DNA of 64,000 nucleotides, from the IMG/VR virus record IMGVR_UViG_3300045988_151351, positions 64,001 to 128,000 of that record; one strand, given 5' to 3'. This stretch comes from a virus. The stretch's first letter is position 1. The number at the start of each line of letters is the position of its first letter. This document shows, one piece after another, positions 8,723 to 63,244 of the stretch. Both the position numbers and the translations under genes were made by a program. The notes below the pieces were generated by a model. It worked only from the letters and a program-made list of their open reading frames with translations, had not been told where the DNA came from and searched no databases.

Positions 8723-9235
8723 ATGAATATTTTATTTTTAGATTTATCTACTAAATCTACTGGATATTGTATTTCTGATGATGCTGGTAAAATGATTACT
8801 TATGGTTTAATTACAGCATCATCAGAAAATAATATTTCAAGAATTGTTAAAATACAAACTGAAATTACAAAATTAATCCAATAGTATAAGATAGAAAAAA
8901 TTATAGCAGAAGATGTTCATCCCGAAGAATATGGTTACTCAGATACTGCAAGATTATTAATGTGGCTTTAGGGCGCAGTTATGTTAGGTGCGCATTCAGT
9001 TAATTCTAAAGTAAATTCTAAAACTTTAGAATTAATGTAGGCTAACGAATGGCGCCGTCAACTAGGAATTAAAGTAGGCCGTGGTATTAAACGATCAGCT
9101 TTAAAACCTTTAGATATTTAGTATGTAAAAGAACATTATGGTATTGAAGCAAATGATGATGTTTGTGATGCTATATGTTTATTTACTGCTTATTTCCTCG
9201 CGCAGTAGCAGCAAAATGATTATAATTGGGAGTAA
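8723..9235 (+). CDS. ruvC: RuvC-like Holliday junction resolvase, about 5 TAG codons
   Basis: MNILFLDLSTKSTGYCISDDAGKMITYGLITASSE... has the LDLSTKSTGY catalytic Asp motif. It continues EDVHPEEYGYSDTARLLMWL-TAG-GAVMLGAHSV...DDVCDAICLF (second acidic motif). It lies in frame 2, as does track ORF 8597..8884. Confidence 0.75.
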
Positions 9236-9312
9236 ATGATTGGACTTAAATAAGTAATCTTCCTATCTAAATGCTAAAGTATAATAGAAGCTAAAGAAAG
9301 GAGGTTACATAT

Positions 9313-9756
9313 ATGGCCACTTTTATTGCTGAACATTTTATTGAAATTATTTTTGGACTTATTTCTGCTGGACTATTAGCATTTTGTAAATCAATTCATG
9401 GTAAAATGAAAAAGTATCAAGCAATGGTTGAAGAGCAGAAAAATGATGACCTAGATGAAAAAATTGAATCCCATATTGAGCCTATTAAAGAAGAAATAGA
9501 AGATTTGCGAAAATATATTAGAGAAGCAAAGACTATTGAAGAAAGTCATATGGAATTAATTATTGCATCTTACCGTTTTAGACTAACTCAATTGTGTCGT
9601 GCTTATTTAAAAAAGGGATATATGACTTCTAATGAGTATGAACAATTAACAGAGTTTTATAAAGTTTATCATGGGTTAGGCGGCAATGGGCAAGCCAAAA
9701 CTTATTATGATAAAACAATAAAATTACCAATTCAGCATGAAGAGCTTCCAAAATAA
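9313..9756 (+). CDS. Hypothetical protein with an N-terminal transmembrane helix (147 aa, no TAG)
   Basis: Track ORF with an AGGAGG RBS upstream. The hydrophobic N-terminus FIAEHFIEIIFGLISAGLLAF is followed by a charged, coiled-coil-like region. Confidence 0.5.
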   Translation: MATFIAEHFIEIIFGLISAGLLAFCKSIHGKMKKYQAMVEEQKNDDLDEKIESHIEPIKEEIEDLRKYIREAKTIEESHMELIIASYRFRLTQLCRAYLKKGYMTSNEYEQLTEFYKVYHGLGGNGQAKTYYDKTIKLPIQHEELPK

Positions 9757-9762
9757 AAATAA

Positions 9763-9800
9763 GGGATAGAACAATTAAGTTCTATCCCTTATTTTTTTAT
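9763..9800. terminator. Bidirectional intrinsic terminator (hairpin plus T-run)
   Basis: aagggatagaac aattaa gttctatccctt is followed by TTTTTTTAT on the + strand and flanked by A/T runs on both sides. It sits between convergent genes. Confidence 0.6.
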
Positions 9801-10100
9801 CTATTTAAATATTTCATCAGTCTATTGGATTATATCAAATCCATAATCACTAATAATATTAGCAACTAATTCCTACTAATCTAAATTTAATTTAATATTA
9901 TAGCTAAACATAAAAGCATGAGTTATTTCATGACATAAAACATGATATAATTTATCTTCTTCTAATCTTCTATTTATATATATTGTGCTAGTCTTATCAT
10001 CACAAGATCCTAATGCTTTTACCCCATTATGTTTAGATAATTTAGAAAAATTGGAGGGTACTAAAAGCACCCTCCAATTTCTTCCATTTATATTAAACAT
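9789..10100 (-). CDS. Small HExxH-motif protein (putative zinc metallopeptidase-like), extends through 3 TAG codons past the track ORF
   Basis: Track ORF 9876..10100 ends ...VLCHEITHAFMFSYNIKLNLD. The frame continues through TAG to TAA at 9789-9791. It overlaps the 3' end of the gene 10093..10575. Confidence 0.35.
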
Positions 10101-10575
10101 TCATCTAACCAATTTTAGTTGCTAAAGCCGAAATTTTTCTTTCAAGGTAAGACCTTTCATCATTTGAAGCATTTTCAATCATTTCAACTATATCAGAGCT
10201 TAAATCTGAAATATAATTATCTAACTCCTTAAGCTGAATAGCCTTATCTTTATGATTTTGTTGAGCTTCTAAATACGCTTTACGGGCAGAGGGACTACGA
10301 CCTATTTTGTCATCATCCCAAGCTGTTTCCATATGTGTATCAGTCATATATTTACTTGTTTTATTTTTAGGATATTTTTCAGTATAATATAAGATTTCTT
10401 CTTCAGAAGCTTTTTCCATTGCTTCAGTAATTGAACAATAATACTTTGCTTCTTCTAAATCTTTTATCATATCAATGACTTCACCTAATTCATGAGCATC
10501 AACACAGGCTAAATTAGACATTTGGCATTCGACTTGCGCCATTAATTGTTCTCTTACACTTTCATAATCGCACAT
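10093..10575 (-). CDS. Hypothetical acidic protein (about 160 aa)
   Basis: Track ORF 10105..10575 extends through one TAG to TAA at 10093. A GGGGG RBS lies upstream of ATG 10575. Confidence 0.45.
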
Positions 10576-10589
10576 TCTAATTTACCCCC

Positions 10590-11015
10590 TTAAGCTACTC
10601 GTTCAATAATTAAATTAGCATTTTGTAAAGAGATAGCCTAAGTACCAGTGTTTTCAACACTAACCTAAGTGCAGCAACCTCCAATTACATCTAAGAATAA
10701 AGAACAAGAAATATTATTAAATTGTTCTACTGCGGTAGGAGTAGAAATCATAGTTGTTGTTTCTACCGGTTCCCCATTTATGGCAACTGCTAAAGAAATT
10801 GCTCCAGGAGTTCCACCAGTAGGAACTGCTATATTACCACCAAATAATATACGGAATCGAGCTTTTCGCTGATTCGCAGAAGTGATACCACGTAATGTTA
10901 CTAAGCCACTTCCTTCACGATGTATCATAGAACAATTGCCAGCAACAGCGGTATTAGTAAATACTACATTACTATTGGCATTAACCGTTTGTAAAGCATT
11001 TGCTGTTATTTCCAT
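10590..11015 (-). CDS. Hypothetical protein (about 141 aa, 2 TAG codons)
   Basis: Track ORF 10665..11015 (MEITANALQTVNANSNVVFTNTAVAGNCSMIHREGSGLVTLRGI...CSLFLDVIGGCCT) extends through TAG to TAA at 10590. An AAGAGG RBS lies upstream. Confidence 0.45.
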
Positions 11016-11036
11016 TTAGAAAACCTCTTTTCTTTA

Positions 11037-11912
11037 TTAAGCAGTATACTAACATCCACATCCAGTATAATTAGTTCCCACATAAGGATTTTGGACAACA
11101 TAGGCTGGAATAGGAGCTTTATTACTTAATTGTTCTACTAAATAAGCATTCTATAAATTTTGAGAAATTTGGCCCTTAAGAGTAGCATTTTCAGCAGTAA
11201 GAGTTTCAATCTTATCTTTGACAAGGAAATCAAGGATAGAGCGCATACTAGCATTAGTATTATCAATAATATCTCTTACTCCTTCATTAACTGCTTGACG
11301 GTTTTGGCAAGCTTGACTTGCTAAATTATAATTTAAATCAGCAAAGCTTGATGTAATAAGATTTCTATTCTCGCAGCAGCACTGAGCATTCGTTGCTGCC
11401 ATATTATTTAATTGCTGAATGATATTATTAGTATTCTACATACCAGCGACAGTATCAGCATTAATAGCCTAAGTAATGCCGAAGGTATTTTGCATATTGT
11501 TAATGCCCATATTACAAATATCTTGTGATAAAGAACGAGCATTGCTATTAATAGTCTCAGTAACATTACCAAAACCAGAAAGTAAATTATTATTTACATT
11601 AGCGAAACCATTACATAAGCCAGTCTGTAAAGAATTAATTCCAGATTTAAGATCGCTTATATCAAATCCATAAGTTAATTCTTCTCTCGTAGTAGTGCCT
11701 TGATAACCAGTATTACCATTATTACCCCAGCCGTTATTACCCCAGCCATTAAAGCAGAATAAGAATAGGATAATAATCCACCAAGCGCCGTCGCCCCACA
11801 TACCATTATCGCCATTGCGATAACCGTTACCAGAAGCAGCAGCAATATCAGATAAAGAATATTGCTGAGTTGGAAAACCACCATAATTAAACATACAAAT
11901 AACCCCTTTCAA
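11037..11912 (-). CDS. Membrane protein rich in Gly-Trp and cysteine (about 291 aa)
   Basis: Track ORFs 11469..11912 and 11151..11402 are in one frame and joined by 3 TAG codons. They include a TM helix (WWIIILFLFCF), GWGNNGWGNNG repeats and the cysteine clusters QCCCENRN...GCGC. The ORF ends at TAA 11037. Confidence 0.4.
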
Positions 11913-11931
11913 AAGTTATAATATTTTATTT

Positions 11932-12175
11932 AAATCCCTAATTGAGATTTAAATTTCGCAAATTCAGTATCAAAATTCATTCCTTTTGATTCAAAAAAAT
12001 TCCTCGCAAACTTTTCAATGTCCGCGGTTTGGCCCCCGCGTGCCATTTTTATCAGATTATCTCCCATAGGCGTTCCGCCCATATTTTTTTCCAGAAGAGA
12101 CATCATCAAAGTTTGAGGATTCTAGCCGTTTTTAATCATACCTATTATCTACAATGGATTTATTCCCTACATCAT
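11932..12175 (-). CDS. Small hypothetical protein (about 81 aa)
   Basis: A GGAGG RBS lies immediately upstream of ATGATG at 12175. Translation MMQGINPLQIIGMIKNGQNPQTLMMSLLEKNMGGTPMGDNLIKMARGGQTADIEKF... includes an unusually GC-rich stretch. Confidence 0.3.
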
Positions 12176-12186
12176 TTCTTACCTCC

Positions 12187-12642
12187 TTAAAAGTTAAACT
12201 GCGGTTTGCTATCAGTTATTTGCTCTGTCGAAGATTGAGTATTCTATTGTTGTTGTGGATTAATATTAGCCTAGGCCTATTGTGTTAATTGAGAAAAGGC
12301 TTCTTTAATCTATGATAAAGCATTATTAAATTCATTCCGTGTTATAAAATCTACATTATTACCTTGTGAATTGCTTGGAAGTTCTTTTAGCTCATACATA
12401 TTGATTGAAGCAGTTCCATCCATATTAATCTATTTTGTATATATTCTTCTATTGGCATAGTCAGGAAAATAGAATACTGAACCATCAAAATCTACACTCA
12501 TCGCCCGTACTTCATCTAATGAAGAGACTGGTCTAACTCTTGGAGTAGTATTTTGATTTGATGCCGGCATAATAGGTTGAGTGTTATAAATTGGCCGATT
12601 TATAGCACTAAACTATTGTGGATAACCATAATTATTATTCAT
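12187..12642 (-). CDS. Hypothetical protein (about 151 aa, about 5 TAG codons)
   Basis: A GGAGG RBS lies 8 nt upstream of ATG 12642. Translation MNNNYGYPQ(Q)FSAINRPIYNTQPIMPASNQ...VDFDGSVFYFPDYANRRIYTK... has a Gln-rich C-terminus and ends at TAA 12187. Confidence 0.35.
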
Positions 12643-12781
12643 AATTTTTACCTCCGGAGTTTTAAAGTAGAAGAATTTTATCTTTTTCTTCCATAGATAT
12701 ATAAAATTTAGATTATAAATATCATTAGGAAATACTCACACTTTTTTAAATGGAAATCTCTTCCGCACCAAAATAAATAAA

Positions 12782-12816
12782 AATATCGTCATGAATAGAC
12801 TTTTATAAAAATTTTT
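12782..12816 (+). promoter_or_regulatory. Putative promoter with extended -10 (TAGACT-17 nt-TGGTATAAT) for the response-regulator gene
   Basis: An AT-rich divergent intergenic region separates the minus gene ending at 12642 from the plus gene at about 12865. It contains tagacttttataaaaatttttggtataat. Confidence 0.35.
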
Positions 12817-12864
12817 GGTATAATTATAAATAGAGAAAGATAAAAATATTAATGAAAGGAGGAG

Positions 12865-13569
12865 ATTATCATAGTTTCAATATGTATTTGTGATAGAGAT
12901 GATTCACATGGATAGTCAATGATTACTATTATTAAAGATTATTTGTTTAAACATAATGTAATGGGAAGTATAAATTATTTTAATAATGCTAAAGATTTAT
13001 TAAGACAACCAATCTATGACGTCTATTTCTTAGATATTTTAATTAGAGATATGAATGGCATTGAGCTTGGAAAAATATTAAAACAAAAAAATGAAAAATG
13101 CGAAATAATTTATATAACTGATTAGCGTAATTATGGACCACAAACCTATGAAGTAAAGGCATTTAATTATTTATTAAAACCTATAAATATAGAAGAAATA
13201 AATGATACTTTAGATAGATTATTTGAAAAAATTAAAAGTGAATATAGATATTTAAGAACTAAAGATGGGGAAGAAAGAATTCCACTTAAAGAATTATTAT
13301 ATGCTGATATTATAGGAAGAAATTTAACTTGTCATTTCTATGATGGTGAATTAATTCAAAGTACAACTTTAAAAAAATCTTTTGAAAAAATGATAGGTCC
13401 TTTAAAAGATAATCCAGATTTTGTCTTTGTTGCACCGAGTTTATTAATTAATTTAAATTATATTAGTTCAATGAACTTAAACTATTTAACTTTTACTACT
13501 GGTGAAGTATTATATTTCCCAAAGAGCGCGTATAAATTAATTTGTGAAAGATGGAAGCAATATAGTTAA
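12865..13569 (+). CDS. LytTR-family (AgrA/LytR-like) response regulator: receiver domain plus LytTR DNA-binding domain
   Basis: Translation ...IIIVSICICDRDDSHG-TAG-SMITIIKDYLF...YDVYFLDILIRDMNGIELGK (receiver with a phospho-acceptor Asp) runs through TAG 13123 into ...IPLKELLYADIIGRNLTCHFYDGELIQSTTLKKSFEKMIGPL...FVFVAPSLLINLNYI (LytTR fold). An AAAGGAGGAG RBS at 12855 is followed by no in-frame ATG, so the gene needs a non-canonical start (ATT/ATC/ATA near 12865). Confidence 0.6.
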
Positions 13570-13578
13570 ATAGAAATA

Positions 13579-13612
13579 AGGGGAACACTCGATAATTGAG
13601 TGTTCCCCATTT
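13579..13612. terminator. Bidirectional intrinsic terminator
   Basis: ggggaacactc gataatt gagtgttcccc followed by TTTTTTTAT. It lies between the convergent response-regulator and holin genes. Confidence 0.6.
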
Positions 13613-13614
13613 TT

Positions 13615-14031
13615 TTATGATTTATTAATATTAACACTTGCTTCTATCTTTTCAGAAATATATTTATCTAAATCACCATAAATATTAGCAAGATAATCTT
13701 TTGCTTCTTGGCTAAGAATTGTTAATACTGCTTGCGTAGTTTGTTCAAATGCTTGCTTTTGAGCTTCTGCATCAAATTTGCCTTGTTTCTTTAGACTTTC
13801 TACATAAGTCTAATTCGTAGCAATAACACAACTATTAATTGTGTCAGTTAGCATTTGAATATATTTATTTGCTAATGCATTATCATTATTCTTTTGAATT
13901 TGATTACTTTTTACATTAATCCATTTAATAATAAAAGTAGTCAATACTCCTAATAATGGAATAATACATACTTGAAAAATTTGAGTTAGTAATTCACTAG
14001 TCATTATTATTTCCTCCTTAAGGTGTTCCAT
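13615..14031 (-). CDS. Putative holin (Phage_holin_1-like), 1 TAG codon
   Basis: Track ORF 13810..14031 has a TM segment (LLTQIFQVCIIPLLGVLTTFIIKWI) followed by ...SCVIATN-TAG-TYVESLKKQGKFDAEAQKQAFEQTTQAVLTILSQEAKDYLANIYGDLDKYISEKIEASVNINKS*, resembling Gram-positive phage holins (NQTYV...LKK.GKFD motif). It is the last gene of the minus-strand late region. Confidence 0.5.
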
Positions 14032-15088
14032 AAATAGTACAAGTCATATCATATCTAGCGCTTGGACTATTATTTAATAAAATTAATTCACAAAATTTTT
14101 GTGATGAAGTACTTGATTCATAACATCTACCAACAGCATAAATTCTCATTGTTCCTCCTGTTTGAGAATAATTTAATAATTCTAAGGTAGATATACCATA
14201 TAGGGTAGTTCTAGAACTATTTTCACAAACACAATATCCTTCAAAACCTTTTGATTTAATCTGTGCTAAAGTTACTCCGGAGGGATCCCCTCCTTTAAAA
14301 GATAACATATGATATGTTCCAGAGTTATAATCTGTATTAACTTTAATTGCAATAGAATAAATAGTAGAAGGTAATGCTCCTCCAAATGAAAAATTCAAAT
14401 ATCCTCCGTTACCATTACCTTCATTATAAAAGCTTGATACAGTTCCAGTATATAATTTAGCACTAGATAAAGTTCCAGTTACTCCAAAAATATTTACTCC
14501 TGATTTAATATTACTAGCAATTAAATTGCTGCTTCCAGATACAGTAATATTTCCAGTAGCATAAGAACCAGAAGCAATAGCAGTCTAAGAACTTGTGCTT
14601 GGAGTAATAGTTCTACCATTAACAGAAGGTATTGTTCCTGTTACTTTTACTCCAGAAGCAGAAGTAAATGTTTTGCCAGTAAGTACATCGGCGGCAGTTG
14701 CATTACCAAAATCTGACTTTGGAAAAACACATCTTGTATGCGCTCCTGCTCTATATAATTTTGGATTATTAAAAGGATATTTAACATAATAATATGTTGA
14801 ATCCTAAGTTCTTAAATAATCAGATAATGAACCAGATTTTTGTTCATATCCTGTTACAATTGGTATTGTACCTGTTATTTTTTCACCATTCACATAGGCT
14901 GTTTTACCTTGTCCAATATCTTCTGCAATGGCAGTTGCATCTGAAGTATCTATGCCTGTTTCAATATTTTGTATCAAATTAGGCATATCTTGAGCATTAA
15001 TTTTATTAGACGTATTAGTTTTTTCTCTAATAGCATCTCCAATTCCTGTTAACAATTCAGGGACTGTACTATAACTCATTATTTCCAT
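14018..15088 (-). CDS. Tail-fibre-like protein (about 356 aa)
   Basis: Track ORFs 14804..15088 and 14018..14398 share a frame and are joined by TAG codons. Gly/Ser/Thr-rich beta-type sequence (GTIPSVNGRTITPSTSS..., NFSFGGALPSTIYSIAIKV...). The start overlaps the upstream gene stop. Confidence 0.45.
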
Positions 15089-16812
15089 TTACCTCCTATC
15101 GCTGTAAATAATTCTATTTCTTTCCATTCATTATTTACTCCATAATATAATTTACATTCTTTCCACTCTTTATCTTTTCCAAAATAAATTTTTTTCTTAA
15201 AAACAGGATATAAATAAAGGTTACTCGGTTCGGTTCTAGTATATGTTGTATTAACTTTATAAGTTACTGTACTACTTCCTTTAGCTGTTGAATATCCTAA
15301 AAATTCACAACCTTCTAAATACTATTCATTTGGATAAATAGTAAAAGTTGCTGAAGAATAACAAGCATTATTAGTATTAGATGACCATTTAGCATATAGC
15401 TAAGTAGCACCATTAGACATAATAAAATTAGTATCTGAAGTTGAATAACTACCTCCTGGAGTAAAATTTACTCCACTTCCTGTATTTGTAGTATTCCAAC
15501 TGGATAAAGTATAAGTAGTTTTAGGTTTATACTAAACATAATTAGTATGCAAAGGAGTAGTATTATCTGACTTATATCTAATTATGGAATAGGTTGTTGT
15601 TTCCGATCCCCATACTGGTGATTTTGTAATAGAAGAAGATGATGGCATAGTAATAGTCTAAGCAATATTGTTATAATATGTTAAAGCATTAGCTGTACCA
15701 CTACCTCCATTAAGATTAAATGATAAAGAAAAATACCAAATTCCATATAAACTTAAAGAATCCTAATCAGTAGATATCGTAGCTCCTTTAGCATATTTAG
15801 GAGTTGTTGCGTTTTTATTAGTACTCCATCCTTTGAATATAAAATTAGTAGGATTGGACCAAGTAGGTGGAGTCATTGTATTTGCTCCTGTATTTGTATA
15901 AGTCCCTAAAAGAGTGCCAGTATTATTATAAAATGACATAGTCCCTTTATAAGGGGTAAATGTTAATGTATAAGGAATATAAGTAGATCCACTACCACTA
16001 AAAGCTAAATTAAGTGCTACATAATAAGTTCGACTACCTAAGAATTTTTCACTATATTTTACTTCACAGTCATATGATACGCTAGGATCCTTATCATCAT
16101 TTTTCTCAGTATCATTATTATCATATACAAAAGATGCATCACGTGATTGCCCTGGAGCTCCTTGACTTGGTTCAGTTTTAGTAATATAGCCATAGGGATC
16201 TGGACTTTTACTTCCAATAGTAGTTGTAAAAGTAAGAGTTCCTCCACAAGGAACTGTTACATTAAAATAAGATGCTCTATAATAATATACTTGTATAGAC
16301 CCACTATAACTTGAAGTATTTTCCGTATTTGTTATTCTTCGATCCGCAGAATAATGATAAGGAGCAATCCAAGAAGTATAAGTATCATTATAATCTCCAT
16401 AAGGTGTATCATAATAATCTCTATAAGGTGTATCATCATAATCTCTATAAGGTGTATCATCATAATCTCTATAAGGTGTATCATTATAATCATTATATGA
16501 AGCAGGTGGATACTAAATATGGTCCTAATCAATGTCACCACCTATACCGTCCTATACAGAAGCTCCATAGGTAGTAGTGGTTGAAAGATTACGTCCTGAG
16601 AATGTAATAGTAACAGAACCAGAATTAGAATAAAATATTAATCCATTACGCCCACTAGTTAGAGAACCGCTAGACGCAGTAAAATTCGTAGTAGCACCTT
16701 GGTTAATTTTTGGATAAATATATATTTGACCACTAGAACAATTTCGCCATGATGCAAGAATTGTAATTGAACTTCCACTAGCTGACTATAAAGATACAGA
16801 AATTGAAGCCAT
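15078..16812 (-). CDS. Tail-fibre / receptor-binding-like protein (about 578 aa) with internal DYDDTPYR tandem repeats
   Basis: An AGGAGG RBS precedes ATG 16812. Continuous hand translation MASISVSL(Q)SASGSSITILASWRN...PYRDYDDTPYRDYDDTPYRDYYDTPYGDYNDTYTSW...TFTTTIGSKSPDPYGY... contains about 12 TAG codons. It ends at TAA 15078-15080. Confidence 0.5.
16385..16480 (-). repeat. In-frame 24-bp tandem repeat (about 4 copies) encoding (D-Y-D/N-D-T-P-Y-R/G)n
   Basis: Visible on the + strand as tctctataaggtgtatcatcataa repeated with minor variants. It lies inside the fibre gene 15078..16812. Confidence 0.7.
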
Positions 16813-16815
16813 ATA

Positions 16816-17778
16816 TTATCCTCCTTCCTTATTTATAGAACTAAAAGCTAAACACCCGCCCTAACAAGATAAATTATTAAATTTTTTACAATTTTTACAT
16901 TTATCATTTTGTCCGTTAGCTTCTCTTTTAGGATAGATTGTTTTAAATAAAAAATAATTTGAAACTTCATTAATATTATCAAACTAATGCAAATCTATTA
17001 AACCATAAGCGCCAAAACAACAAGTTGCTTTAAAATCCGGAGTAATATCTATAACTGGTTTACATAAAGTTTTCCAATGAATTACATTTTTTTTTAAAAA
17101 AGCTAAATCATCTTCTTTAAAATAACAAGCAGGTATCATATTACAATCAATGCGCAATTCAATATTATTTTTATAGGCTAACTAATTTAATTCTAATAAT
17201 TGTGGGATACCATTATTGTAATATTCATCTTTATCTACTTGACTATATTGGCAAGTAGGAGCAGCATAACTAATTCTTAAATTATTTTTTTTATATTTTT
17301 TACATAATTCAATTATATAATTAAAATCCTATAAATCTGGGTATATATTAATACCAAAATTAATTTGATTTAATAGCTAATTTTTTTCAAAATTATTTAA
17401 AGTTTCTATAATACTATTATAATTACTTTCTGACATAGTATTTGGAGCATTCAAATTTATTAAACTAGATAAAGCAGAATGATTTTTAAAACTATTTAAA
17501 TATTTGTCTAAATAAATCCCATTAGAAAAAATAGTAACATTTTTTAAATCATATAATTTATCAAAACAAATATCTATATATTCTGCTAGGCAGGGATGTA
17601 AAGTAGGTTCTCCTCCTATAATACCAATTCTATTACAAGGAGTCTAATCTAAAAAATCTAATATAGTTAATAACTATTCCTTTGTTATAAGCTATTTTTC
17701 TTCCTCTGTAATAAATTTATTAGCAAAACAATATGGACACTATAAATTACAATAATTTAAAAATGCAATATTAGGCAT
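16816..17778 (-). CDS. Radical SAM enzyme with a SPASM/twitch-type C-terminal Cys cluster (about 320 aa, about 8 TAG codons)
   Basis: MPNIAFLNYCNL-TAG-CPYCFANK gives CX3CX2C if TAG encodes Gln. GIIGGEPTLHP is the GGE(P) SAM motif. The C-terminus ...NDKCKNCKKFNNLSC-TAG-GGCLAFS* is SPASM-like. The RBS lies within the upstream gene, which ends TAATATTGC over this ATG. Confidence 0.7.
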
Positions 17779-19045
17779 TATTTATTTTATCTCCTTCTAA
17801 TTTTTTTATTTCTTTTAAATTAAAAAAATTATTTTCTATTAAAATTTGCTTTAAAATAGGATTTATATTATCATATTTTAAATTAATATTTTTAATTAGA
17901 TCGTATAAAATATCATATAATTTTTTATTAAAAATGCAATAATCTTCATTGAAAGATAATTTTCCTGTAGAAAAATATTCTTTTATACATCCACCATAAC
18001 AAATATCATAATAATCACATTTTCCTTTACAATGTGTTAAAATTATATCATCAATTTTATTAATATAATCCTAATAAGTTGGTAAAGATATTAATTCTTC
18101 AAAAGAATTAATATCTCTAATATTACAAAAAATATTTTCTTTATTAACATATCCACAATGAGTAATATCACCATTAGGTAAAATTACTATCCATTTACCA
18201 ACACAATAAGTTGTATAGCATTTCCCTCTACGGCCTAATAGACATTTAATACGATTTGTAATTCCTTGATCTTCAATAGGATTGTCTGTATCATATATCC
18301 AATACCTAAAATATTCTGTAATTAATTCTAAATCTTCTTCATTATCAATATCTATTAGCATATTATTTGAATTACTATCTAATAATTTTATATCTTTAAT
18401 AAAATTCCCCTAAAAGCCATGAACATTTAATGTTTTTAAATATTCATAATTTTCAATTAAATCTTTTAAATGGGGTTTATCATACACACATATAAAACCT
18501 TTATGAGTATTTTTTAAAATAGGTTCCATGGCTAAAGTAGATTGTAGTCCTCTAGTCTCAGTATTATATATACCATTATATGAAAGTCCATATTTTATAT
18601 GATATTTTTCAAGTAATGGTAATTTATCTTCTAATAAAATTCCATTACTTTGTAAAGAAATAGGAAAATTTAAATTATATTTTTGTTTTTGCTCAGATAA
18701 ATATATTAATAAATCTTCTGGCAATAATAAAGGTTCTCCACCATGCCAAGTAATTTCTCGAATATGAGAACCAAATTTAGTAAGAATCTAATCTAATAGT
18801 TCTTTAGTTATAATCTAATCTTTATATTCATATCTAATAAACTAATTTTCACAATAAGGACAATTAGCATTGCATTCATAAGAAGCATGTAATAAAATTA
18901 ATACATTATCTATAGTATGAAATGACATATCATCTACTAACTATAAATCATCTAATTTAGATAATAATTCATTTTTATATTTAACTTTATAGGGCTAAAT
19001 ATGATTATACTTTAACCATAATTTTTTTTCTTCTTCGTATGTCAT
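17771..19045 (-). CDS. Radical SAM / SPASM-domain enzyme (about 424 aa, about 7 TAG codons)
   Basis: Start MTYEEEKK at 19045. Motifs ...LHASYECNANCPYCEN (CX3CX2C), ITWHGGEPLLLP, ...HCGYVNKENIFCNIRD...CKGKCDYYDICYGGCIKEY (auxiliary-cluster cysteines). Track ORFs 18410..18724 and 18071..18361 are in one frame joined by TAG. It ends at TAA 17771. Confidence 0.7.
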
Positions 19046-19050
19046 AATTT

Positions 19051-19272
19051 TTATCCCTCATATCGAATCAAAATTTTTCCATTCACAACAGAAGGCATAG
19101 ATTCAGAAGTTGGAGAAAAAATAAACATATCATTAGTTATAACTTCATTAGCTGATGTACCATTTGTGACAGATTTTATTTTAGGGTTAGAGCTATTAAT
19201 AGCACTTTTAAATAAATCAACACTATTATCATCATCAACATAAATTGCTCTTAATAATTTAGGCTCACTCAT
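19051..19272 (-). CDS. Small hypothetical protein (73 aa, no TAG)
   Basis: Track ORF with an AGGAGG RBS, located immediately upstream of the radical-SAM pair: MSEPKLLRAIYVDDDNSVDLFKSAINSSNPKIKSVTNGTSANEVITNDMFIFSPTSESMPSVVNGKILIRYEG. Confidence 0.45.
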   Translation of the reverse strand: MSEPKLLRAIYVDDDNSVDLFKSAINSSNPKIKSVTNGTSANEVITNDMFIFSPTSESMPSVVNGKILIRYEG

Positions 19273-19285
19273 TTAATTTACCTCC

Positions 19286-19828
19286 TTAATAACTGTTATT
19301 CACTAAACCATTAACATAAGTATAAACTGCTCTTGCCGTTGGAACTTGACTATCTCCAGAACTTGAATTTATTACTGTGACTACTGGAAATGTAGTTCCT
19401 CCCGAGGATGATGAATCTCCATTATTATTACTAAGAGATAAATAAGGAAAACAAATAAAATTAAAAATATCTCCAATTCTAGTCTTATAATTACTTCCCA
19501 CTAAATTAATTTCAGTTTTATTTGTATTTAAAGTATAATTTTCCATTTTATTTAATAATAAACCATTCTAAAATACTAATAATTGTTTTTCATCAATTAT
19601 TTCTATTGTATTAGGAATGGGAATAGTCTAAGTTATCTCTGATATAATTACTGTTTCATTTATTAAACTTTTATAAAATAATCCTTGAGAAATAGCTGTT
19701 TGTAGATCATAAGTAGAGCCGTTTATATCAATATAAACGGCTCTACCAAGAGTCTACGGGAAAATAGGATTTTTATCATTATCATGCTATTCTGTGGTCT
19801 ATAACAATTTAATATATTCTTCATTCAT
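19286..19828 (-). CDS. Hypothetical structural-module protein (about 180 aa)
   Basis: Track ORF 19286..19546 extends upstream through 4 TAG codons to ATG 19828 (MNEEYIKLL(Q)TTE(Q)HDNDKNPIFP...). Its start overlaps the stop of the giant glycine-rich gene. Confidence 0.4.
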
Positions 19829-22800
19829 TTTGTGTTAGCCACCTTCCATTATAATTAACTTGAAAATCTTTAATTAATTTCCATTCATTATTTATTTTAA
19901 CATAAGTATCTTTAATACGATACCATTCACCATTATCTTTTATATATTCATCAGTTGGGCCATCTAAAACAGTAATAATTATAACTCCATCTCCATAATT
20001 ACCAATTCGTGTATTTAACTAATCTGGCTATAGAATTTTTTCCTAACCAGTTTTAGAAATAGTATCTGATAAATAATAATTTGGTGTTAATAAGCATCCA
20101 GAAGGATAATTAACCGCAGTAGAAGAAGTATAAACATAATTTGAACCGCCTCCACCGCCGCTACCCAATTGGCTTGTATCAGTAGTGTAAGTTCCAGCAC
20201 CGCCATACCAGCCACCACCACCAGCGCCAGAAACAACACCAATTCCAATAGCTCCACTTTTTATAGTTATACCATTTCCACCAAATCCAAAGCCACCATA
20301 ACAGTCTAATTGAGTAGAATAACTATTTGACTAAGTATCTTTTATCCAATTATTATTTACACCAGTTTGATTTCCACCATAACCACCACTAGTAGTACCA
20401 CTATTATATAAAGTAGCATTTAAACCTCCACCAGCACCGCCTTGGTATCCTTTATATCCACCTTCTGAACCGCCACCGCCAGCGACTATTACTCTAGCAT
20501 AAAGAGAATTAGAACCAATTCTTATATCAGTTCCTCCACCACCAGCAGGATAATTTTGACGTTTTCCACCGCCATTGAATCCTCCAGCAATACCAGATCC
20601 TCCTACTCCAAACCATATAGGAGTAGTTTTAGTTAAAGTTAATACGCCAGATGTATAACCACCTCTATTATTTCCAGTACTATTATCGCTATAATAATTT
20701 CCAGAAGCAATTCCACCTTGAGCACCCCAGCATTCTAGTTTATAACGTCCAGGAGGAAATGAAAATGGTCCTATTACTGCGCCATTTGGCGTTTCAAAAT
20801 TGCCCATAAAAGTACTAGTCTAAGGAATAATAATCTATTTTCCCTTTTTAATAACACAATTATAAGGAGATGAAATTACTTTAACTACGATACTTTTTGA
20901 GATATGCGCATAATTGCTATCATTATTATTATTTACAGTAATCGTAGCACGACCAATTTTATTAGCTTGTACAGTAATCCCTCGACCTTGATTATCACCA
21001 GCAATTAAATCTCCTATTGATACTATTGTATTATCATCTGATGCAAATGATAAGTTACTATAATTACCATTATACAATACTGCTAAATTAACAGAATTTT
21101 CAACAACAATATAATGAGGATCCTAAATCTATAAATATGAAGTAGCAGGATTTATCTGCCACTCTATAGTTTTATTGCTAGTTGTTCCATCTGACCATTT
21201 AGTATTTGTAGTATCTATTAAAGAAAGAACCGTTGTATAATTTCCTGCATTAGAAGCTGAAGTTGTTCCACCATTTATTGAATAAAGAATATCATAATCA
21301 GAATTATCATATAATATATCGCTAGCAAAATACCATGTATTTCCATTATATTGAATAGTTGTCTAAGGTTCAGGGATTAACACTGGAGTATATGATAAAT
21401 TCTCATAAGTCATTGTAAAATATGGAATTCGTTTTGTTAAGCCAGAAATCTAAGTCTAATCTGGACTATAACAATACATATATATTAAATCTCCAGCTTT
21501 TAAAGCAACCTCAAAAGATACAGTTCTTTGTTCCTAAGTAATATAATAATACTAAAAATTATTTCCATTTATCTATATACTAAATTGACTCATCCAATAA
21601 GAACCTATATCATCAAGATTTACTTCTGCCCCAAAAGTAAATTTAATTTTTACATTTTTCTTTACTCTGCCTCGATAATAAGCATAAAAACCAGTAAGAG
21701 GAGTTTTATTAGTTTCATATCTAGATGTATTAGAATTATAATAAAAACAATTATCATAATCACTAATATTTTCAACACCTTCATCAACATTTAACTAAGT
21801 AATACGCACATAACCAGTACCATTATGTCCCGTTTCAGATGAACCTGTTGGAGAAGTAAATGAAACATTTCCTCCGATAGTCTAAGCATTTTCAAGATAA
21901 TATTTACTATCTAATAAACATCCAGATGGATAACTAGTAGCAGTTGATGAAGTATATACATAACCGCTACCTCCTCCGCCGCCTTGATTATCAGCTCCAG
22001 TTCCAGAAGAAGGTGGAGAAGTTAAATTGGAAACAGTTAAACCACCATACCAGCCGCCGCCACCGCCACCACCATCATAAGCATGACGTCCTTGACCAAA
22101 ACCTCCTCCTGAAGTTTGACTTCCTCCAGCAGCACCACCAGTACCACCTGATAGTCCTCCGCCATAACCGACTGAATCACCACTATCTTCTCCGCCACCT
22201 CCGCCGCCACCGGCCACAATCACACGAGCATAAAGAGAAGTAGAATTGATACGAATATCAGAAGCACCACCACCGCCACATCCTGGTTCTGAGCTACCAG
22301 ATCCCCAAGCTGATCCACCACCATTATATCCTCCTGAAGACAAAGATCCATATCCAACAGCTCCAATTCCACCACTATAGCAATGTAATGTAGTAGGTCT
22401 TAATAAAGTAAGATTACCATAAGAATACCCTCCTAGTCCTCCAAGACCTGCGGCTGAATTACCATCTTGTTGTCCTCCTCCTCGAGCACCCCAACATTCT
22501 AATTTATATTTACCAGGATTAAATTTTTTGCTATAAGATCCTGAACCGGAAATATTTAAATCATTAGAAACATATCCAATTGATAAAACAGTAATGCGTA
22601 CATAGCCATTACCACTATGACCAGTTTCAGAAGCACCAGTAGGTGAAGTGAATGATGTATTACCAGCAATAGTATTTCCACTTGTTAAATCGTATTCATT
22701 TTGGTATACGTTAAAGCTATAATATCCGCTGCCGCCTGCATTTTGTTCTCGATAAGTACTATCATTATCATTATAGCCAGTCTAGGCACCACCGCCATAC

Positions 22801-24467: not shown

Positions 24468-24487
24468 AAAGAATCTCCTTTCAATTT

Positions 24488-24590
24488 TATTTATATAACA
24501 AAAAAAATGGGAGAGGATATACCTCTCCCATTTTATTTATATAACAAAAAAATGGGAGAGGATATACCTACCTCTCCCATATAATATATG
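24488..24590. terminator. Tandemly duplicated intrinsic terminator (two copies of hairpin GGGAGAGG-n5-CCTCTCCC plus a U-run) inside the late region
   Basis: The unit tttatttatataacaaaaaaatgggagaggatatacctctccca occurs twice (about 50-bp period). On the minus strand each hairpin is followed by ATTTTTTTGTT. It separates the upstream gene (ending at 24677) from the downstream unit. Confidence 0.55.
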
Positions 24591-24676
24591 AAAATTATTA
24601 AAATATTAAATTGAGAAAAGTATCTTACCTTTCATAATAACTGAAAAAATAAAATACTTTCTTAATTTATTTTGTC

Positions 24677-25298
24677 CTTATAATACCAACCAATAAACAT
24701 CTAATCCACCATCATTACCAACATATCCTTCTAGGCGAGATAGACGTTCCCAAATCTACTAAACAACCTAATCATCATCAACTACATAATAATCTTCTTC
24801 TTGTGAAATATTATCATAATTTAAACGATTATAAACCTTAATTACATCAGGCTAAGTATTTAAATTAAACATAAGATTATTTGTGTTTTTTTCAATATGA
24901 TAAAAAGTAATCATATATTTCAATAATCCGGTCTTTTTAGTAGCACTATAATTTAAAACCCAAGGAAAAATAATTTTATCTTTCTTTGTAACTAAATCAT
25001 AATAAGGAACTGGATAAATACGCTTTTCATTATCAGCATTAATATAACTTACAATACACATCATATTACTTAAATCAACTAAGCCATGATACCTATTTAC
25101 TTCAAAATAAAGTGTCTCAGCAGCATGATCGCCTTCAATAGTAACATAATTATTAGTATTCTCAATTTTTTTAGTCTAAAGATTAATTTTTATTAATGCT
25201 TCATCTTCTGGGCTTGGTAAAGATGGATATTTAATTGGAAAATTTTCATCTTCTAATTGGTATAATAACTGTTGATAATCGGCAGGATTAGTTATCAT
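24677..25298 (-). CDS. Hypothetical protein (about 207 aa)
   Basis: A GAGGTGA RBS precedes ATG 25298 (MITNPADYQQLLYQLEDENFPIKYPSLPSPEDEALIKINL...). It includes track ORF 24852..25064 and ends at TAA 24677. Confidence 0.45.
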
Positions 25299-27130: not shown

Positions 27131-27331
27131 TTATTCTTCATACCATTCTTCTAATTCATCTTCTGGAACAAGAGGAGATACAGTATAATATTCTTTACCA
27201 TCTTTAGTAACTCGTTTACCATAATCAGCATATAATCTATACATTTTCATAGCAGTAACCCCAGGTAAATGAACACCAGTCTCAATCGTTCCATTAGTAC
27301 CTACATATCTATAAATTGTATCTTTTTCCAT
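27131..27331 (-). CDS. Small protein (66 aa, no TAG)
   Basis: Track ORF with an AAGGAG RBS, followed by a terminator. MEKDTIYRYVGTNGTIETGVHLPGVTAMKMYRLYADYGKRVTKDGKEYYTVSPLVPEDELEEWYEE. Confidence 0.5.
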   Translation of the reverse strand: MEKDTIYRYVGTNGTIETGVHLPGVTAMKMYRLYADYGKRVTKDGKEYYTVSPLVPEDELEEWYEE

Positions 27332-36932: not shown

Positions 36933-37625
36933 TCACTCTCCTTTAATATCTTTCCAAGTTAAAGTATTTTCAAGAGCACTTACACGATTAGTTAAATCAG
37001 TAGAAGTCTCTAAGAATGTATTAACTTGACTTATAGTTTCCTCAGATAATGTACCAACAACTTTTTTCCAAATACCATCAGCTGCTAAAAATCTATCAGC
37101 AGGACCCTTAGTTGGCACAGGAACTAAACCGCTAGTACCATCTTCAGTTTCAGTAGCTCCTGTCATTATTGTGCCAACAGGAATTGACATCCATGCACCG
37201 TTGTCAGTTAGAACTTTTCCTTCAATGCCATTTGGATTAACTGGGATAAGTCCATTTTCAGTACCATTAAAAACAGGAACATATCTAACAACATTTTCTT
37301 TTGTTAAAATTCTATCAACCAATGAACTAATTAAAGTTTCATTATTAGTTAATTGAGTATTAACCCAACGAGTACCATTATAAATTAATACATCATCAGT
37401 ATTTAAATTATTGATAACTATATCAGCTAATTCTGATAGTTTACCAGCAGTATTTAAACCACTACTAATTAAACGAGTACCTAAATATAATTTACCTGAA
37501 TTATCTTCAGCGCTAGTAATAAAATATAAAGTATCTTCATCCTTAATCTTTAAAGAATCATAAGCGACTTGAGAACCTCTTTGGAATTTAACATATTTTT
37601 GGGTAATATCTGGCAATTTAATCAC
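36933..37625 (-). CDS. Tail-fibre protein (230 aa, no TAG)
   Basis: Track ORF. The N-terminus VKFQRGSQVAYDSLKIKDEDTLYFITSAEDNSGKLYLGTRLIS carries the same motif. Repeats GTENGLIPVNPNG...GKVLTDNGAWMSIP and GTSGLVPVPTKGPADRFLAADGIWKKV are typical phage-fibre collar repeats. Confidence 0.6.
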   Translation of the reverse strand: MIKLPDITQKYVKFQRGSQVAYDSLKIKDEDTLYFITSAEDNSGKLYLGTRLISSGLNTAGKLSELADIVINNLNTDDVLIYNGTRWVNTQLTNNETLISSLVDRILTKENVVRYVPVFNGTENGLIPVNPNGIEGKVLTDNGAWMSIPVGTIMTGATETEDGTSGLVPVPTKGPADRFLAADGIWKKVVGTLSEETISQVNTFLETSTDLTNRVSALENTLTWKDIKGE

Positions 37626-60345: not shown

Positions 60346-60879
60346 TTAACCCAATTTCTCAACAACGTTCTTCAATAAAGTAAGATTCTCTGGATCAGCT
60401 AATTTCTTTTGAATTTCAGTAGCATCAAGATTCAAATTACTATAATCACGTCCAATAGAATCAAGAATACCAAGCGCGGAATTGCGATAAGTATAAATCG
60501 CGGTTGCCAATTCATGAGTCACTTTTGTTAAATAATAAAATTCGCTTTCAGGAACTAAGCCAATAATTAAGTTAAGTAATTTATTACTACTTAATAAATC
60601 ATATAACTTCATTGGGTCTGACTTTTGCTTTTCTGTAAAACTAATATTAGAATAAGCATAGACAATCTCTAAAGCAAGCCACATATCTAATTTAAGATTA
60701 TTATAATATCCAGCATCATCATCAACTGAATTATTTAATACTCTTGAAATTAATTCTGCTTTTTCCGCAATTGGAAGATATTGCTTTACTTCAACTGTCT
60801 GATCATTAAATTCTACAGTTTGAAATTCATCTAATTTGTCTTTAGTTAAACCTAATTTTGAAAATGCTATCTTTGCCAT
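60346..60879 (-). CDS. Tail assembly chaperone-like protein (177 aa, no TAG), immediately upstream of the TMP gene
   Basis: Track ORF MAKIAFSKLGLTKDKLDEFQTVEFNDQTVEVKQYLPIAEKAELISRVL... Its position relative to the TMP gene and its size fit a gpG-like chaperone. Confidence 0.4.
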   Translation of the reverse strand: MAKIAFSKLGLTKDKLDEFQTVEFNDQTVEVKQYLPIAEKAELISRVLNNSVDDDAGYYNNLKLDMWLALEIVYAYSNISFTEKQKSDPMKLYDLLSSNKLLNLIIGLVPESEFYYLTKVTHELATAIYTYRNSALGILDSIGRDYSNLNLDATEIQKKLADPENLTLLKNVVEKLG

Positions 60880-62062: not shown

Positions 62063-63244
62063 TTACTTGTTTTCTTTATCAAGTTTAGATAAAAGTTCAT
62101 CTAGTTCGTTCTTTTCTTCAACTACTGTTGTTTCTTTCGGAACTTCTTTGATTACCCTTTTTTCTGCTTTCTTAATTACTTCAGGTTTCTTTTCAGCACT
62201 GGGTTCAGACTTTACAACCCAATGTTTACCTTTAATAATCATAAATTAATCAGTGAAACGAGCGTTGTGACTGGCATCATGAACAGTCTGAGTTCTATGA
62301 ATGTCACTAGCGCCGCCTTCCTCAATAATCTGAATAGCAGCAAGGACTTTCTTACTGTGGTCGAAACGAGTATAATCAGGGAATGCGTCCATAGTAAATG
62401 TGAAAGTAGAAGGATCGCCAGAAGAAGCCATTGTGAAAGTAAAGTTAGACTGAATCTTGCAGTTAGGAATTATAAATTCAGCAGGCATATCAACACCATT
62501 TTGATCACGGAATAAGGTAGAAGCTTCAAGATAATAGTTACCACCGAATTTATCAGCAGTAATTTCAATCTGTTGAGCACCACTAGCTTTTTCAGTATAA
62601 TAATCAACAATAGCACTATCATATGCTGCAGCTGCTGGAAGACCATTATGTTCATCAAAAGTATAATCACCTGTACCAGCAACATAATCATCATGTGGAG
62701 TTTTAACAACTAAATCAAAATATTCATTGCCATTAGTATCCTTTTTAGCAGTTAACTCCTCATGGACAGGAATAAAAGGTTCAGAAATAATTTCGCCATC
62801 TTTGACAAACATAACATAAGCGAAATTCTCTTGATTACCAGTTGGAAGATAAGGCTTTTTAGAAACACGAATAGTAACTTGTCCTTCAGTAGTTGTACTA
62901 TCAATTTGTGCCTTATCTACAGTTTCAGTGATATGCTGTTTAATAGTACTATCAGCACTTGCTTCAATTAAACCGGCACCAGAAAGAATCATAAAACCTT
63001 CTGGAGAAATAAGAGCATCTTCCATTGTGAAAGTAACAGTTCTTTCACCTTCCCAAGCTACTAAACGAGCATTACCACGGCCACCTTGAGCATATACAGT
63101 GGTAGCTGCGCCTTCCATGCTAGAAGTCTTTAATGTATCGAAATAGATAACTGGTTCATTCTTATAGAAGATTTTATTACCGATCTTTTGAGCTGCTTTA
63201 GCCTTCAAAACAACATCGCAAATCTCACGAACACCAAATTTCAT
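62063..63244 (-). CDS. Major structural protein (about 393 aa; major tail tube/sheath or other abundant virion protein) with a Lys-rich C-terminal extension after a single TAG
   Basis: Track ORF 62246..63244 (332 aa, AAGGAGG RBS, MKFGVREICDVVLKAKAAQKIGNKIFYKNEPVIYFDTLK...) has no internal TAG. Its TAG at 62246 is followed in frame by FMIIKGKHWVVKSEPSAEKKPEVIKKAEKRVIKEVPKETTVVEEKNELDELLSKLDKENK* (TAA 62063). It is bracketed by terminators and sits two genes upstream of the chaperone/TMP. Confidence 0.5.

Follow-up and report, generated by a model that had tools for sequence, protein, structure and literature searches.

A phage-specific receiver-LytTR regulator with a predicted AUA start codon in a family of large TAG-recoded phages

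The stretch analysed in this study (the window) comprised 64,000 nucleotides (nt) of viral DNA, positions 64,001 to 128,000 of IMG/VR record IMGVR_UViG_3300045988_151351, and the gene of interest was a plus-strand response regulator that couples a receiver domain to a LytTR domain. We consider it fairly probable that this gene encodes an intact, selectively maintained and phage-specific transcription factor which acts independently of a kinase, and which belongs to the core genes shared by a family of large phages in which TAG has been recoded. The features of the gene and of its 3' neighbour are listed below in window coordinates; L-numbers denote the loci of related phages, and dN/dS the ratio of non-synonymous to synonymous substitution rates.

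12796-12824, plus strand: promoter from a promoter scan, with -35 TAGACT, a 17-nt spacer and extended -10 TGgTATAAT
12854-12866, plus strand: extended Shine-Dalgarno (SD) sequence GAAAGGAGGAGAT, with 8 nt between its GGAGG and the ATA
12871-12873, plus strand: putative ATA start codon, 8 nt past GGAGG and aligned with the starts of homologues
12871-13569, plus strand: coding sequence of the regulator, 232 codons and TAA, supported by dN/dS, absence of indels and conserved position
12880-13212, plus strand: receiver domain, from a Pfam PF00072 match and the modelled fold
12913-12915, plus strand: in-frame TAG, codon 15, read as Gln and kept in all clade members
12919-12921, plus strand: in-frame ATG chosen as the start by public gene callers; it is not conserved as a start and is ATA in L002-L004
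13033-13035, plus strand: GAT of the phospho-acceptor Asp55 in FLDILIRD, aligned with the YFLDI of the AgrA/ComE type
13123-13125, plus strand: in-frame TAG, codon 85, read as Gln and kept in the clade
13276-13548, plus strand: divergent LytTR DNA-binding domain, from a fold match, with PSLLIN instead of the usual HRSxxVN
13580-13608, either strand: bidirectional intrinsic terminator common to the regulator and the convergent holin gene, with a 13-bp stem (seven G-C pairs) and T-rich on both strands
13615-14004, minus strand: holin gene, convergent with the regulator (phrog_13712, E 6e-35)

Genetic code, domains and conservation of the regulator

The window belongs to a phage with genetic code 15, in which TAG specifies Gln; this assignment follows from the restored structure of the open reading frames (ORFs) and from the alignment of TAG with Gln across the window. 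With TAG read as sense, ORFs of at least 100 codons added up to 22,771 amino acids (aa), compared with 10,440 otherwise, the longest ORF grew from 888 to 3,132 codons, and the resulting gene map had a coding density of 96% over the 64-kb window. When window ORFs were aligned with the orthologues of related loci, 97 of the 341 TAG sites compared had Gln in the partner sequence (28%, against a background of 3.3%, an 8.6-fold excess), the Gln codon being mostly CAA. One aligned site within the regulator family alternates between TAG and CAA/CAG. In-frame TAG codons were present in 37 of the 42 window ORFs (88%), so those in the regulator are ordinary. An earlier note on this DNA, made from the sequence alone, had singled out one in-frame TAG in this gene; a TAG is present, but there are two of them (12913 and 13123) and neither is special. 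Its use of translation table 15 was appropriate, as TAG is sense genome-wide and under table 11 the regulator frame breaks at both TAGs into ORFs of 68 aa and 59 aa. The TAG-bearing ORFs include nucleotide-metabolism genes (NrdD has seven TAGs), and the five TAG-free ORFs were located at 263-2668, 9313-9756, 36933-37625, 60346-60879 and 62246-63244. The 88% share exceeds the range of 26-71%, which represents per-clade means for TAG-bearing ORFs in recoded phages of standard-code hosts (10.1101/2021.08.26.457843). A search for a suppressor tRNA(CUA) detected no tRNA gene of any kind in the 64-kb window, nor in 15 related loci. The G+C content of the window was 29.6%; this low value, taken with the label of a Clostridium sp. 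metagenome-assembled genome (MAG) described below, points weakly to a clostridial Firmicute as the host.

The regulator frame is open on the plus strand from 12856 to the TAA at 13567-13569, and is preceded by in-frame TAA TGA at 12850-12855. The flanking genes are both on the minus strand, which agrees with the earlier description of an orphan regulator placed between minus-strand blocks. On the table-15 translation, positions 1-110 of the 111 in the Pfam profile Response_reg (PF00072) were matched with a score of 48.2 bits, for which the cutoff is 30.2. The Pfam LytTR profile (PF04397) scored 18.8 bits (E 0.0019), which is under its cutoff of 22.6, and for most family members there was no precomputed LytTR match. 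The weak score can be attributed to a divergent signature in this half of the protein, which reads FV(A/P)PSLLIN ... LYFPK, not F-R-x-H-R-S-x-x-V-N / vpvSR. AlphaFold models were examined for a 99% identical database protein that starts at ATG 12919 (P0001) and for a full-length homologue (P0012). For the P0001 model (predicted local distance difference test score, pLDDT, 90.8), the top PDB match in a Foldseek search was full-length ComE (4cbv, E 2e-12), and the C-terminal half superposed on the LytTR domain of AgrA (4g4k) with a template-modelling (TM) score of 0.78 and a root-mean-square deviation of 2.4 A, and on 3d6w with a TM score of 0.72. The P0012 model had five strand-helix pairs, corresponding to a complete (beta-alpha)5 receiver. 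The receiver of the earlier note was thus recovered by profile; its LytTR domain was sub-threshold by profile and is confirmed by the modelled fold.

Over the 232 codons, in which no indels were found, dN/dS was 0.17 in comparison with L002 (a 77% relative) and 0.09 with L005 (92%). Every family locus examined had the regulator in an equivalent position, including those of relatives with only 30-35% identity, and the contigs concerned measured 125-330 kb. On one side of it lie plus-strand genes for PolIII-alpha, Gmk (guanylate kinase), NrdD, NrdG and dUTPase; onward from these the order is five or six small minus-strand genes, the plus-strand regulator, a holin-sized gene and minus-strand structural genes. 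Among 185,579 species genomes, the regulator was present on one contig, of a Clostridium sp. MAG. The conserved position in a phage family and this sole species-genome match identify the regulator, on comparative grounds, as a phage-specific core gene and not a recent capture from a host. A nucleotide search of a phage collection with window positions 9000-20000 gave no match. The holin has an SD-linked start at ATG 14004, not at its first ATG (14031), and related loci carry a gene of holin-like size (128-202 aa) in the same position beside the regulator.

Phosphorylation and the search for a partner kinase

The phospho-acceptor Asp that the earlier note had placed in FLDILIRD was present in the window copy (GAT, 13033-13035), and Asp was found at this position in 105 of 109 distant homologues. 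Position 55 was Gly in six of ten close protein clusters (P0004, with 219 members, P0005, P0006, P0008, P0009 and P0011) and in loci L001, L002, L005 and L015. The window copy also has Thr83 and Lys103-Pro104, with Lys conserved in 106 and Pro in all 109 of the distant homologues. The residues following beta-1 are C7-D8-R9 and then D10-D11 in the window copy and Y-S-D/N in the wider family; at most one acid stands at the canonical Mg2+ positions after beta-1 in the window copy. When dN/dS was calculated by half, it was 0.32 for the receiver and 0.074 for the LytTR domain, i.e. the receiver evolves about four times faster. No kinase, AgrB, AgrD or AgrC was found among the window neighbours scanned (about 10 kb; 64 kb of a genome of about 200 kb), nor was any kinase Pfam domain found within 10 kb on either side of the gene in L002, L005, L006, L007 and L008, which is concordant with the earlier observation that no kinase or AgrB/AgrD partner was visible. 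Next to the regulator are genes for the holin, for a small metalloprotease-like protein and for proteins without a known function.

Aspartate-less and otherwise atypical receivers that act without phosphorylation exist. The Asp/Gly polymorphism, the degenerate acids, the lack of a kinase nearby and the relaxed constraint on the receiver together argue that the regulator of this clade is independent of a phospho-relay, and that it probably acts without a dedicated kinase and without phosphorylation.

A phosphorylation-dependent AgrA-like regulator, plugged into a host kinase or quorum system so as to time lysis or late transcription, is the most probable of the alternatives, although we regard it as rather unlikely. 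It draws on the Asp55, Thr83 and Lys103-Pro104 of the window copy, on the prevalence of Asp55 and Lys103 in distant homologues, on the adjoining holin gene and on precedent, since agr genes and LytTR proteins have already been recorded in phages (PMC11945551; Clostridioides difficile phages LIBA2945 and LIBA6276). Set against this, Asp55 is replaced by Gly in most close relatives while the gene nonetheless remains under purifying selection, the acidic pair is degenerate both here (C-D-R) and in the wider family (Y-S-D/N), and the window and the 10 kb around related loci are devoid of kinase, AgrB and AgrD genes. The LytTR-box direct repeats that the earlier note had suggested looking for 5' of late operons did not emerge either: a search for 9-bp direct repeats at 20-23 bp spacing in the 15 window intergenic regions returned one site (27193-27222), made up of two overlapping matches, which is chance level (1.0 +/- 1.4 in shuffled sequences). 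The proposal that the protein senses host quorum or two-component signals thus found no positive support and is disfavoured by the Asp to Gly changes, the degenerate acidic pocket and the faster-evolving receiver half.

Between the window and its 98% relative (L001/L014), 11 of the 14 differences in the gene, including the Asp/Gly change, fell within 150 nt of the receiver half (12919-13070). This patch looks like the outcome of recombination from an Asp-bearing lineage. A diversity-generating retroelement was considered as the source of the substitutions relative to L001 and was rejected, as the changes were mostly transitions and not adenine-specific.

Expression signals and start codon

The earlier note had credited the gene with its own extended -10 promoter and a strong bidirectional terminator, and both were borne out. 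The promoter gave 10 of 12 matches plus the TG, and the motif TTGAyT-17-TGnTATAAT was located about 40 nt 5' of the start in all family loci examined. As this is a consensus extended -10 promoter of the sigma-70 type, host RNA polymerase could transcribe the regulator unaided. The terminator scan gave two matches at 13580-13608, against 0.2 expected, with T-rich tails on both strands. An Rfam scan of 12100-14100 returned merely two sub-threshold chance matches, over the terminator hairpin. The centre of the terminator is flipped in L001 (98% identical), where the inner 13 nt, CTCGATAATTGAG in the window, read as the exact reverse complement CTCAATTATCGAG with the stem kept.

Translation of the regulator is predicted to begin at AUA 12871, a non-canonical codon. 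The earlier note had expected a non-canonical start just past AAAGGAGGAG, and the SD sequence, the alignment of homologues, the substitution pattern and beta-1 refine this to ATA 12871. There is no in-frame ATG, GTG or TTG between 12856 and 12918; as had been pointed out, the upstream ATG (12882) is out of frame, and so is ATG 12899. An in-frame ATG does exist downstream, at 12919, 3' of the first TAG, and public callers begin there (216-aa products), but no strong SD sequence precedes it. The predicted pairing of GAAAGGAGGAGAT was -18.6 kcal/mol, which ranked first among 36 gene starts with an anti-SD sequence assumed to be of the Firmicutes type, and AAGGAGGAG is kept in the window clade. 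Among window ORFs of at least 70 codons, 12871 was the only SD-linked near-cognate start without an SD-linked canonical one.

Comparison with homologues supported the same position. The homologous start codon was ATG in nine, TTG in eight and CTG in one of about 20 distant loci, ATA in the window clade and ATT in L002-L004; it lay 6-9 nt after GGAGG and was followed by x-[VL]-S-I-[CA]-[IV]-[CY]. The ATA at 12871 occurred in at least five independent assemblies, and ATT in three more, with an identical start region in IMG/VR 3300026522, ERZ779981, Logan ERR10687447 and the Clostridium sp. MAG. The CTG was that of a distant family member, L008 9914 (contig ERZ28633683 scaffold_16), from which it appears that weak starts arose more than once in the regulator family. 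In the lineage of L002-L004 (77%), codon 12919 is ATA and the first canonical ATG is 31 codons past the SD sequence, and the reading frame, the TAG at codon 15, the SD sequence and the promoter are all kept. The 16 codons of 12871-12918 showed three synonymous and no non-synonymous changes relative to L005, and five synonymous and six non-synonymous changes relative to L002 (omega approximately 0.2), with no indels. The predicted protein would then have the N-terminus (M/I)VSICICDRDDSHGQSM and include VSICICDRDDSHGQ, upstream of ATG 12919. The PF00072 match opens at ICICD, also 5' of ATG 12919, and needs both the upstream start and translation of TAG as Gln. In the P0012 model, beta-1 is formed by residues 2-7, which align with VSICIC of the window (12874-12891); in the P0001 model beta-1 is absent and beta-2 unformed.

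It is quite unlikely that the start is the canonical ATG 12919, giving a protein of 216 aa and leaving the receiver-like codons upstream as an untranslated relic. This ATG is the first canonical in-frame start, the database entries of close relatives all begin there, and a short out-of-frame ORF (12899-12922) overlaps it through ATGA, such that translational coupling is conceivable. The codon is nevertheless ATA in L002-L004, where use of the next ATG would drop beta-1 and alpha-1, and the strong SD sequence is placed for 12871 rather than 12919. The 16 upstream codons evolve as coding sequence, fit the receiver profile from position 1 and align with beta-1 of the P0012 model, whereas the model that begins at 12919 lacks this strand and has beta-2 unformed. 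Frameshifting or coupling from the out-of-frame ATGs 12882 and 12899 was also considered and was found unnecessary, since the ATG and TTG starts of homologues align with 12871. Because the real start appears to be AUA or AUU in a code 15 genome, the public predictions of the close relatives' protein (216, 211, 203 and 172 aa) would start wrongly, without the first strand of the receiver.

In Staphylococcus aureus, AUA and AUU starts with an extended SD sequence (infC, ccpN, cvfC1 and citZ) reach about 10-30% of AUG (PMC13009471). For near-cognate starts in Escherichia coli, the principal assay gave 1-2% of the AUG level, and the values from all assays ranged from 0.02 to 3% (10.1101/063800).

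That the gene is a decaying pseudogene with no canonical start and two standard-code stops is very improbable: its breakage into two short ORFs under table 11, the polymorphic phospho-acceptor and the clustering of substitutions relative to L001 in the receiver half could be read in this way, but TAG is sense throughout the genome, dN/dS is 0.09-0.17 with no indels in 232 codons at 23% protein divergence, the position is kept even between family members of 30% identity, and promoter, SD sequence and terminator are all conserved.

Candidate operators and proposed role

The divergent intergenic region 5' of the regulator comprises 228 nt between two start codons (12643-12870). The minus-strand operon on its other side extends from 12642 to 9789 and contains six small genes; the products of five have no known function, and that of the last (9789-10100) is metalloprotease-like, a 103-aa HExxH protein with weak matches to metallopeptidases of the IrrE/M78 type and the SprT-like type. 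Three elements were distinguished in the intergenic region.

12689-12706, minus strand: -10-like element of the divergent operon (plus strand TTCCATAGATATATAAAA, minus strand TTTTATATATCTATGGAA), conserved in the clade, with a putative promoter role
12734-12741, plus strand: ACTCACAC box, the best-conserved candidate operator, at a fixed offset to the -10-like element
12763-12768, plus strand: second box CCGCAC, weak, with its CGCAC core (12764-12768) 27 nt after the CACAC core

The -10-like element reads TCCATTAyTATAT in 15 distant loci and resembles the TATA-rich boxes before other minus-strand late genes. In all 15 of these loci, and in the window, the ACTCAC(A/G) box starts 42 nt past the CAT of this element (12734 compared with 12692 in the window), and its distance to the regulator start varies from 130 to 218 nt. 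It is the box farthest from the regulator promoter in most loci. The pattern ACTCACRNNTTTT was found once in the 64-kb window, against 0.11 expected. The second box is kept in L005 and degenerate in L002, and its 27-nt spacing fits the period of 27-29 nt seen in distant relatives. These relatives have boxes of the form CAC(A/G)A in the same orientation (consensus yTCACAAAAwT) at about -13, -34, -61, -88, -116, -143 and -172 relative to the regulator -10; the promoter of the regulator itself is overlapped by a 21-bp-spaced pair of TTTTmTCrCAAA, beyond which the boxes recur every 27-29 nt. When loci of 14-20 kb were scanned with a weight matrix built by leave-one-out, the 300 nt 5' of the regulator contained 8 of 10, 4 of 7 and 5 of 8 matches, all on one strand. 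Over the 64-kb window the matrix gave 29 scattered matches, a single one of them in the upstream region of the regulator, which shows the rich box array to be a feature of the distant relatives and not of the window clade.

The candidate boxes are presumably recognised by the regulator, and less probably by some other factor; this is the least secure part of the explanation. It is hardly credible that the array is instead an iteron replication origin with the protein as its initiator: up to eight same-orientation repeats in an A/T-rich intergenic region of 200 nt by the replication module would suit an origin, but the cumulative GC skew turns at about 9.8 kb, at the flip in gene orientation, and not at 12.7 kb, the boxes stand in fixed geometry to promoter elements, and LytTR is established as a transcription-factor fold. 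The origin reading was rejected on the skew.

The proposed role is as follows. The weak AUA start and the compensating extended SD sequence would keep the regulator at low copy, as for ccpN and infC, and synthesis of the full-length protein would depend on the TAG-suppressing state of the infected cell. The regulator would then bind DNA without a dedicated kinase. Its likeliest target would be the divergent intergenic region, in which the spacing between the boxes and the -10-like element of the minus-strand operon is constant. Distant relatives have boxes over the regulator promoter as well, an arrangement that would permit activation of the divergent operon alongside autoregulation.

Several points tell against parts of this proposal. 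Initiation at AUA 12871 is deduced from comparative sequence analysis, and the strength of the SD sequence was calculated with an assumed anti-SD sequence. The window copy retains Asp55, Thr83 and Lys103, so that a host kinase or a small-molecule donor might still phosphorylate it, and the scan for kinases took in about 64 kb of the genome of about 200 kb. Concerning the boxes, the window clade keeps one that is clear (12734-12741), one that is weak and none in the regulator's own promoter; they are mostly spaced by 27-29 nt, wider than the 21-22 nt typical of LytTR dimers, and they may serve a factor other than the regulator.

A more ambitious version, which seems unlikely to us, makes the regulator the master timing switch of this widespread family of large TAG-recoded phages, triple-gated and coupling the change of code to transcription. 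The three gates would be the host-type promoter, the AUA start with its extended SD sequence, and the amber codons that need the code switch. Occupancy of the phased boxes would shut the regulator's own early promoter and turn on the divergent late-type operon by the lysis cassette. In the window clade, the change of the start from ATG/TTG to ATA/ATT may offset the loss of the promoter-proximal boxes.

Other features of the window were also recorded. The minus-strand late region at 15079-19045 contains two radical-SAM genes (16816-17778 and 17771-19045), which in L006 have syntenic counterparts that also carry a SPASM domain. The pair adjoins the gene of a 577-aa protein (15079-16812) with tandem DTPYRDY repeats, and the three genes may constitute a modification system for a virion protein. 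The starts of minus-strand genes were compared at the intergenic regions 24468, 35119, 37626, 50769, 60880 and 61993. In most late genes the SD sequence is preceded, at 10-20 nt, by a TATA(A/G)AATA-like box that follows a hairpin terminator and has no -35; TATAAATA, the T4 late promoter consensus, occurs in two of these late-gene regions. This suggests, from motif comparison, that late genes use a dedicated class of late promoter. A tandem duplication at 24468-24677 has a unit of about 45 nt, made up of a T/A-rich stretch, a GGGAGAGG...CCTCTCCC hairpin and TTATATAAATAAAAT.

The conserved same-position core gene and the operator-like array beside the holin make the regulator the obvious first candidate for studying the timing of gene expression in these recoded phages. 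It also offers a clean comparative case of a near-cognate start with an extended SD sequence in a phage regulator, an arrangement mapped by experiment in Firmicutes only recently. The present evidence does not demonstrate that the phage listens to host quorum sensing. A keyword search of the full-text literature retrieved no account of the regulator family, its conserved position or its start codon, which is not proof that none exists.

Comparison with known systems

The protein resembles the AgrA/ComE/LytR class in its receiver-LytTR architecture, with ComE 4cbv as best PDB match and a TM score of 0.78 to the AgrA LytTR domain, and in the YFLDI at the phospho-acceptor, Thr83 and Lys-Pro103-104 of the window copy. 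It differs from this class in having no partner kinase or peptide genes nearby, a LytTR domain under the Pfam threshold, a degenerate acidic pocket, a polymorphic phospho-acceptor, and no 9+12 bp direct repeats above chance level in the window. Like aspartate-less receivers, it keeps the receiver fold despite replacement of the phospho-acceptor or the metal-binding acids, and its output domain is more constrained than its receiver; unlike them, Asp and Gly alternate here among strains that are 95-99% identical, and the window copy has Asp.

The products annotated as 'two-component response regulator' in the Clostridioides phages LIBA2945 and LIBA6276 are of similar length, and tblastn covers 98% of the query. 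The identity is 26% and the phage backbones are unrelated; in the window family the regulator is a positionally conserved core gene, and the TAG-recoded phages that carry it are represented by contigs of 125-330 kb. Recoding of TAG in gut phages has been well documented (crAss-like, Lak and Sapphire/Agate, 10.1101/2021.08.26.457843; phAss-1, PMC10607447), and these phages likewise have TAG in structural, lysis and many other genes, originate from gut or other metagenomes and commonly have large genomes, the close relatives of the window being on contigs of about 200 kb. The differences are the higher share of TAG-bearing ORFs here (88%) and the lack of a suppressor tRNA in the window and fetched flanks.

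The closest parallel to the predicted start is provided by the Firmicutes AUA/AUU genes (S. aureus infC, ccpN, cvfC1 and citZ; PMC13009471), which also combine a near-cognate start with an unusually long SD sequence, keep the weak start among relatives and encode a regulatory product. The gene described here differs from them in being phage-encoded, in that its initiation codon is deduced from comparative sequence, and in the drift of the start among ATG, TTG, CTG, ATA and ATT across the wider regulator family.

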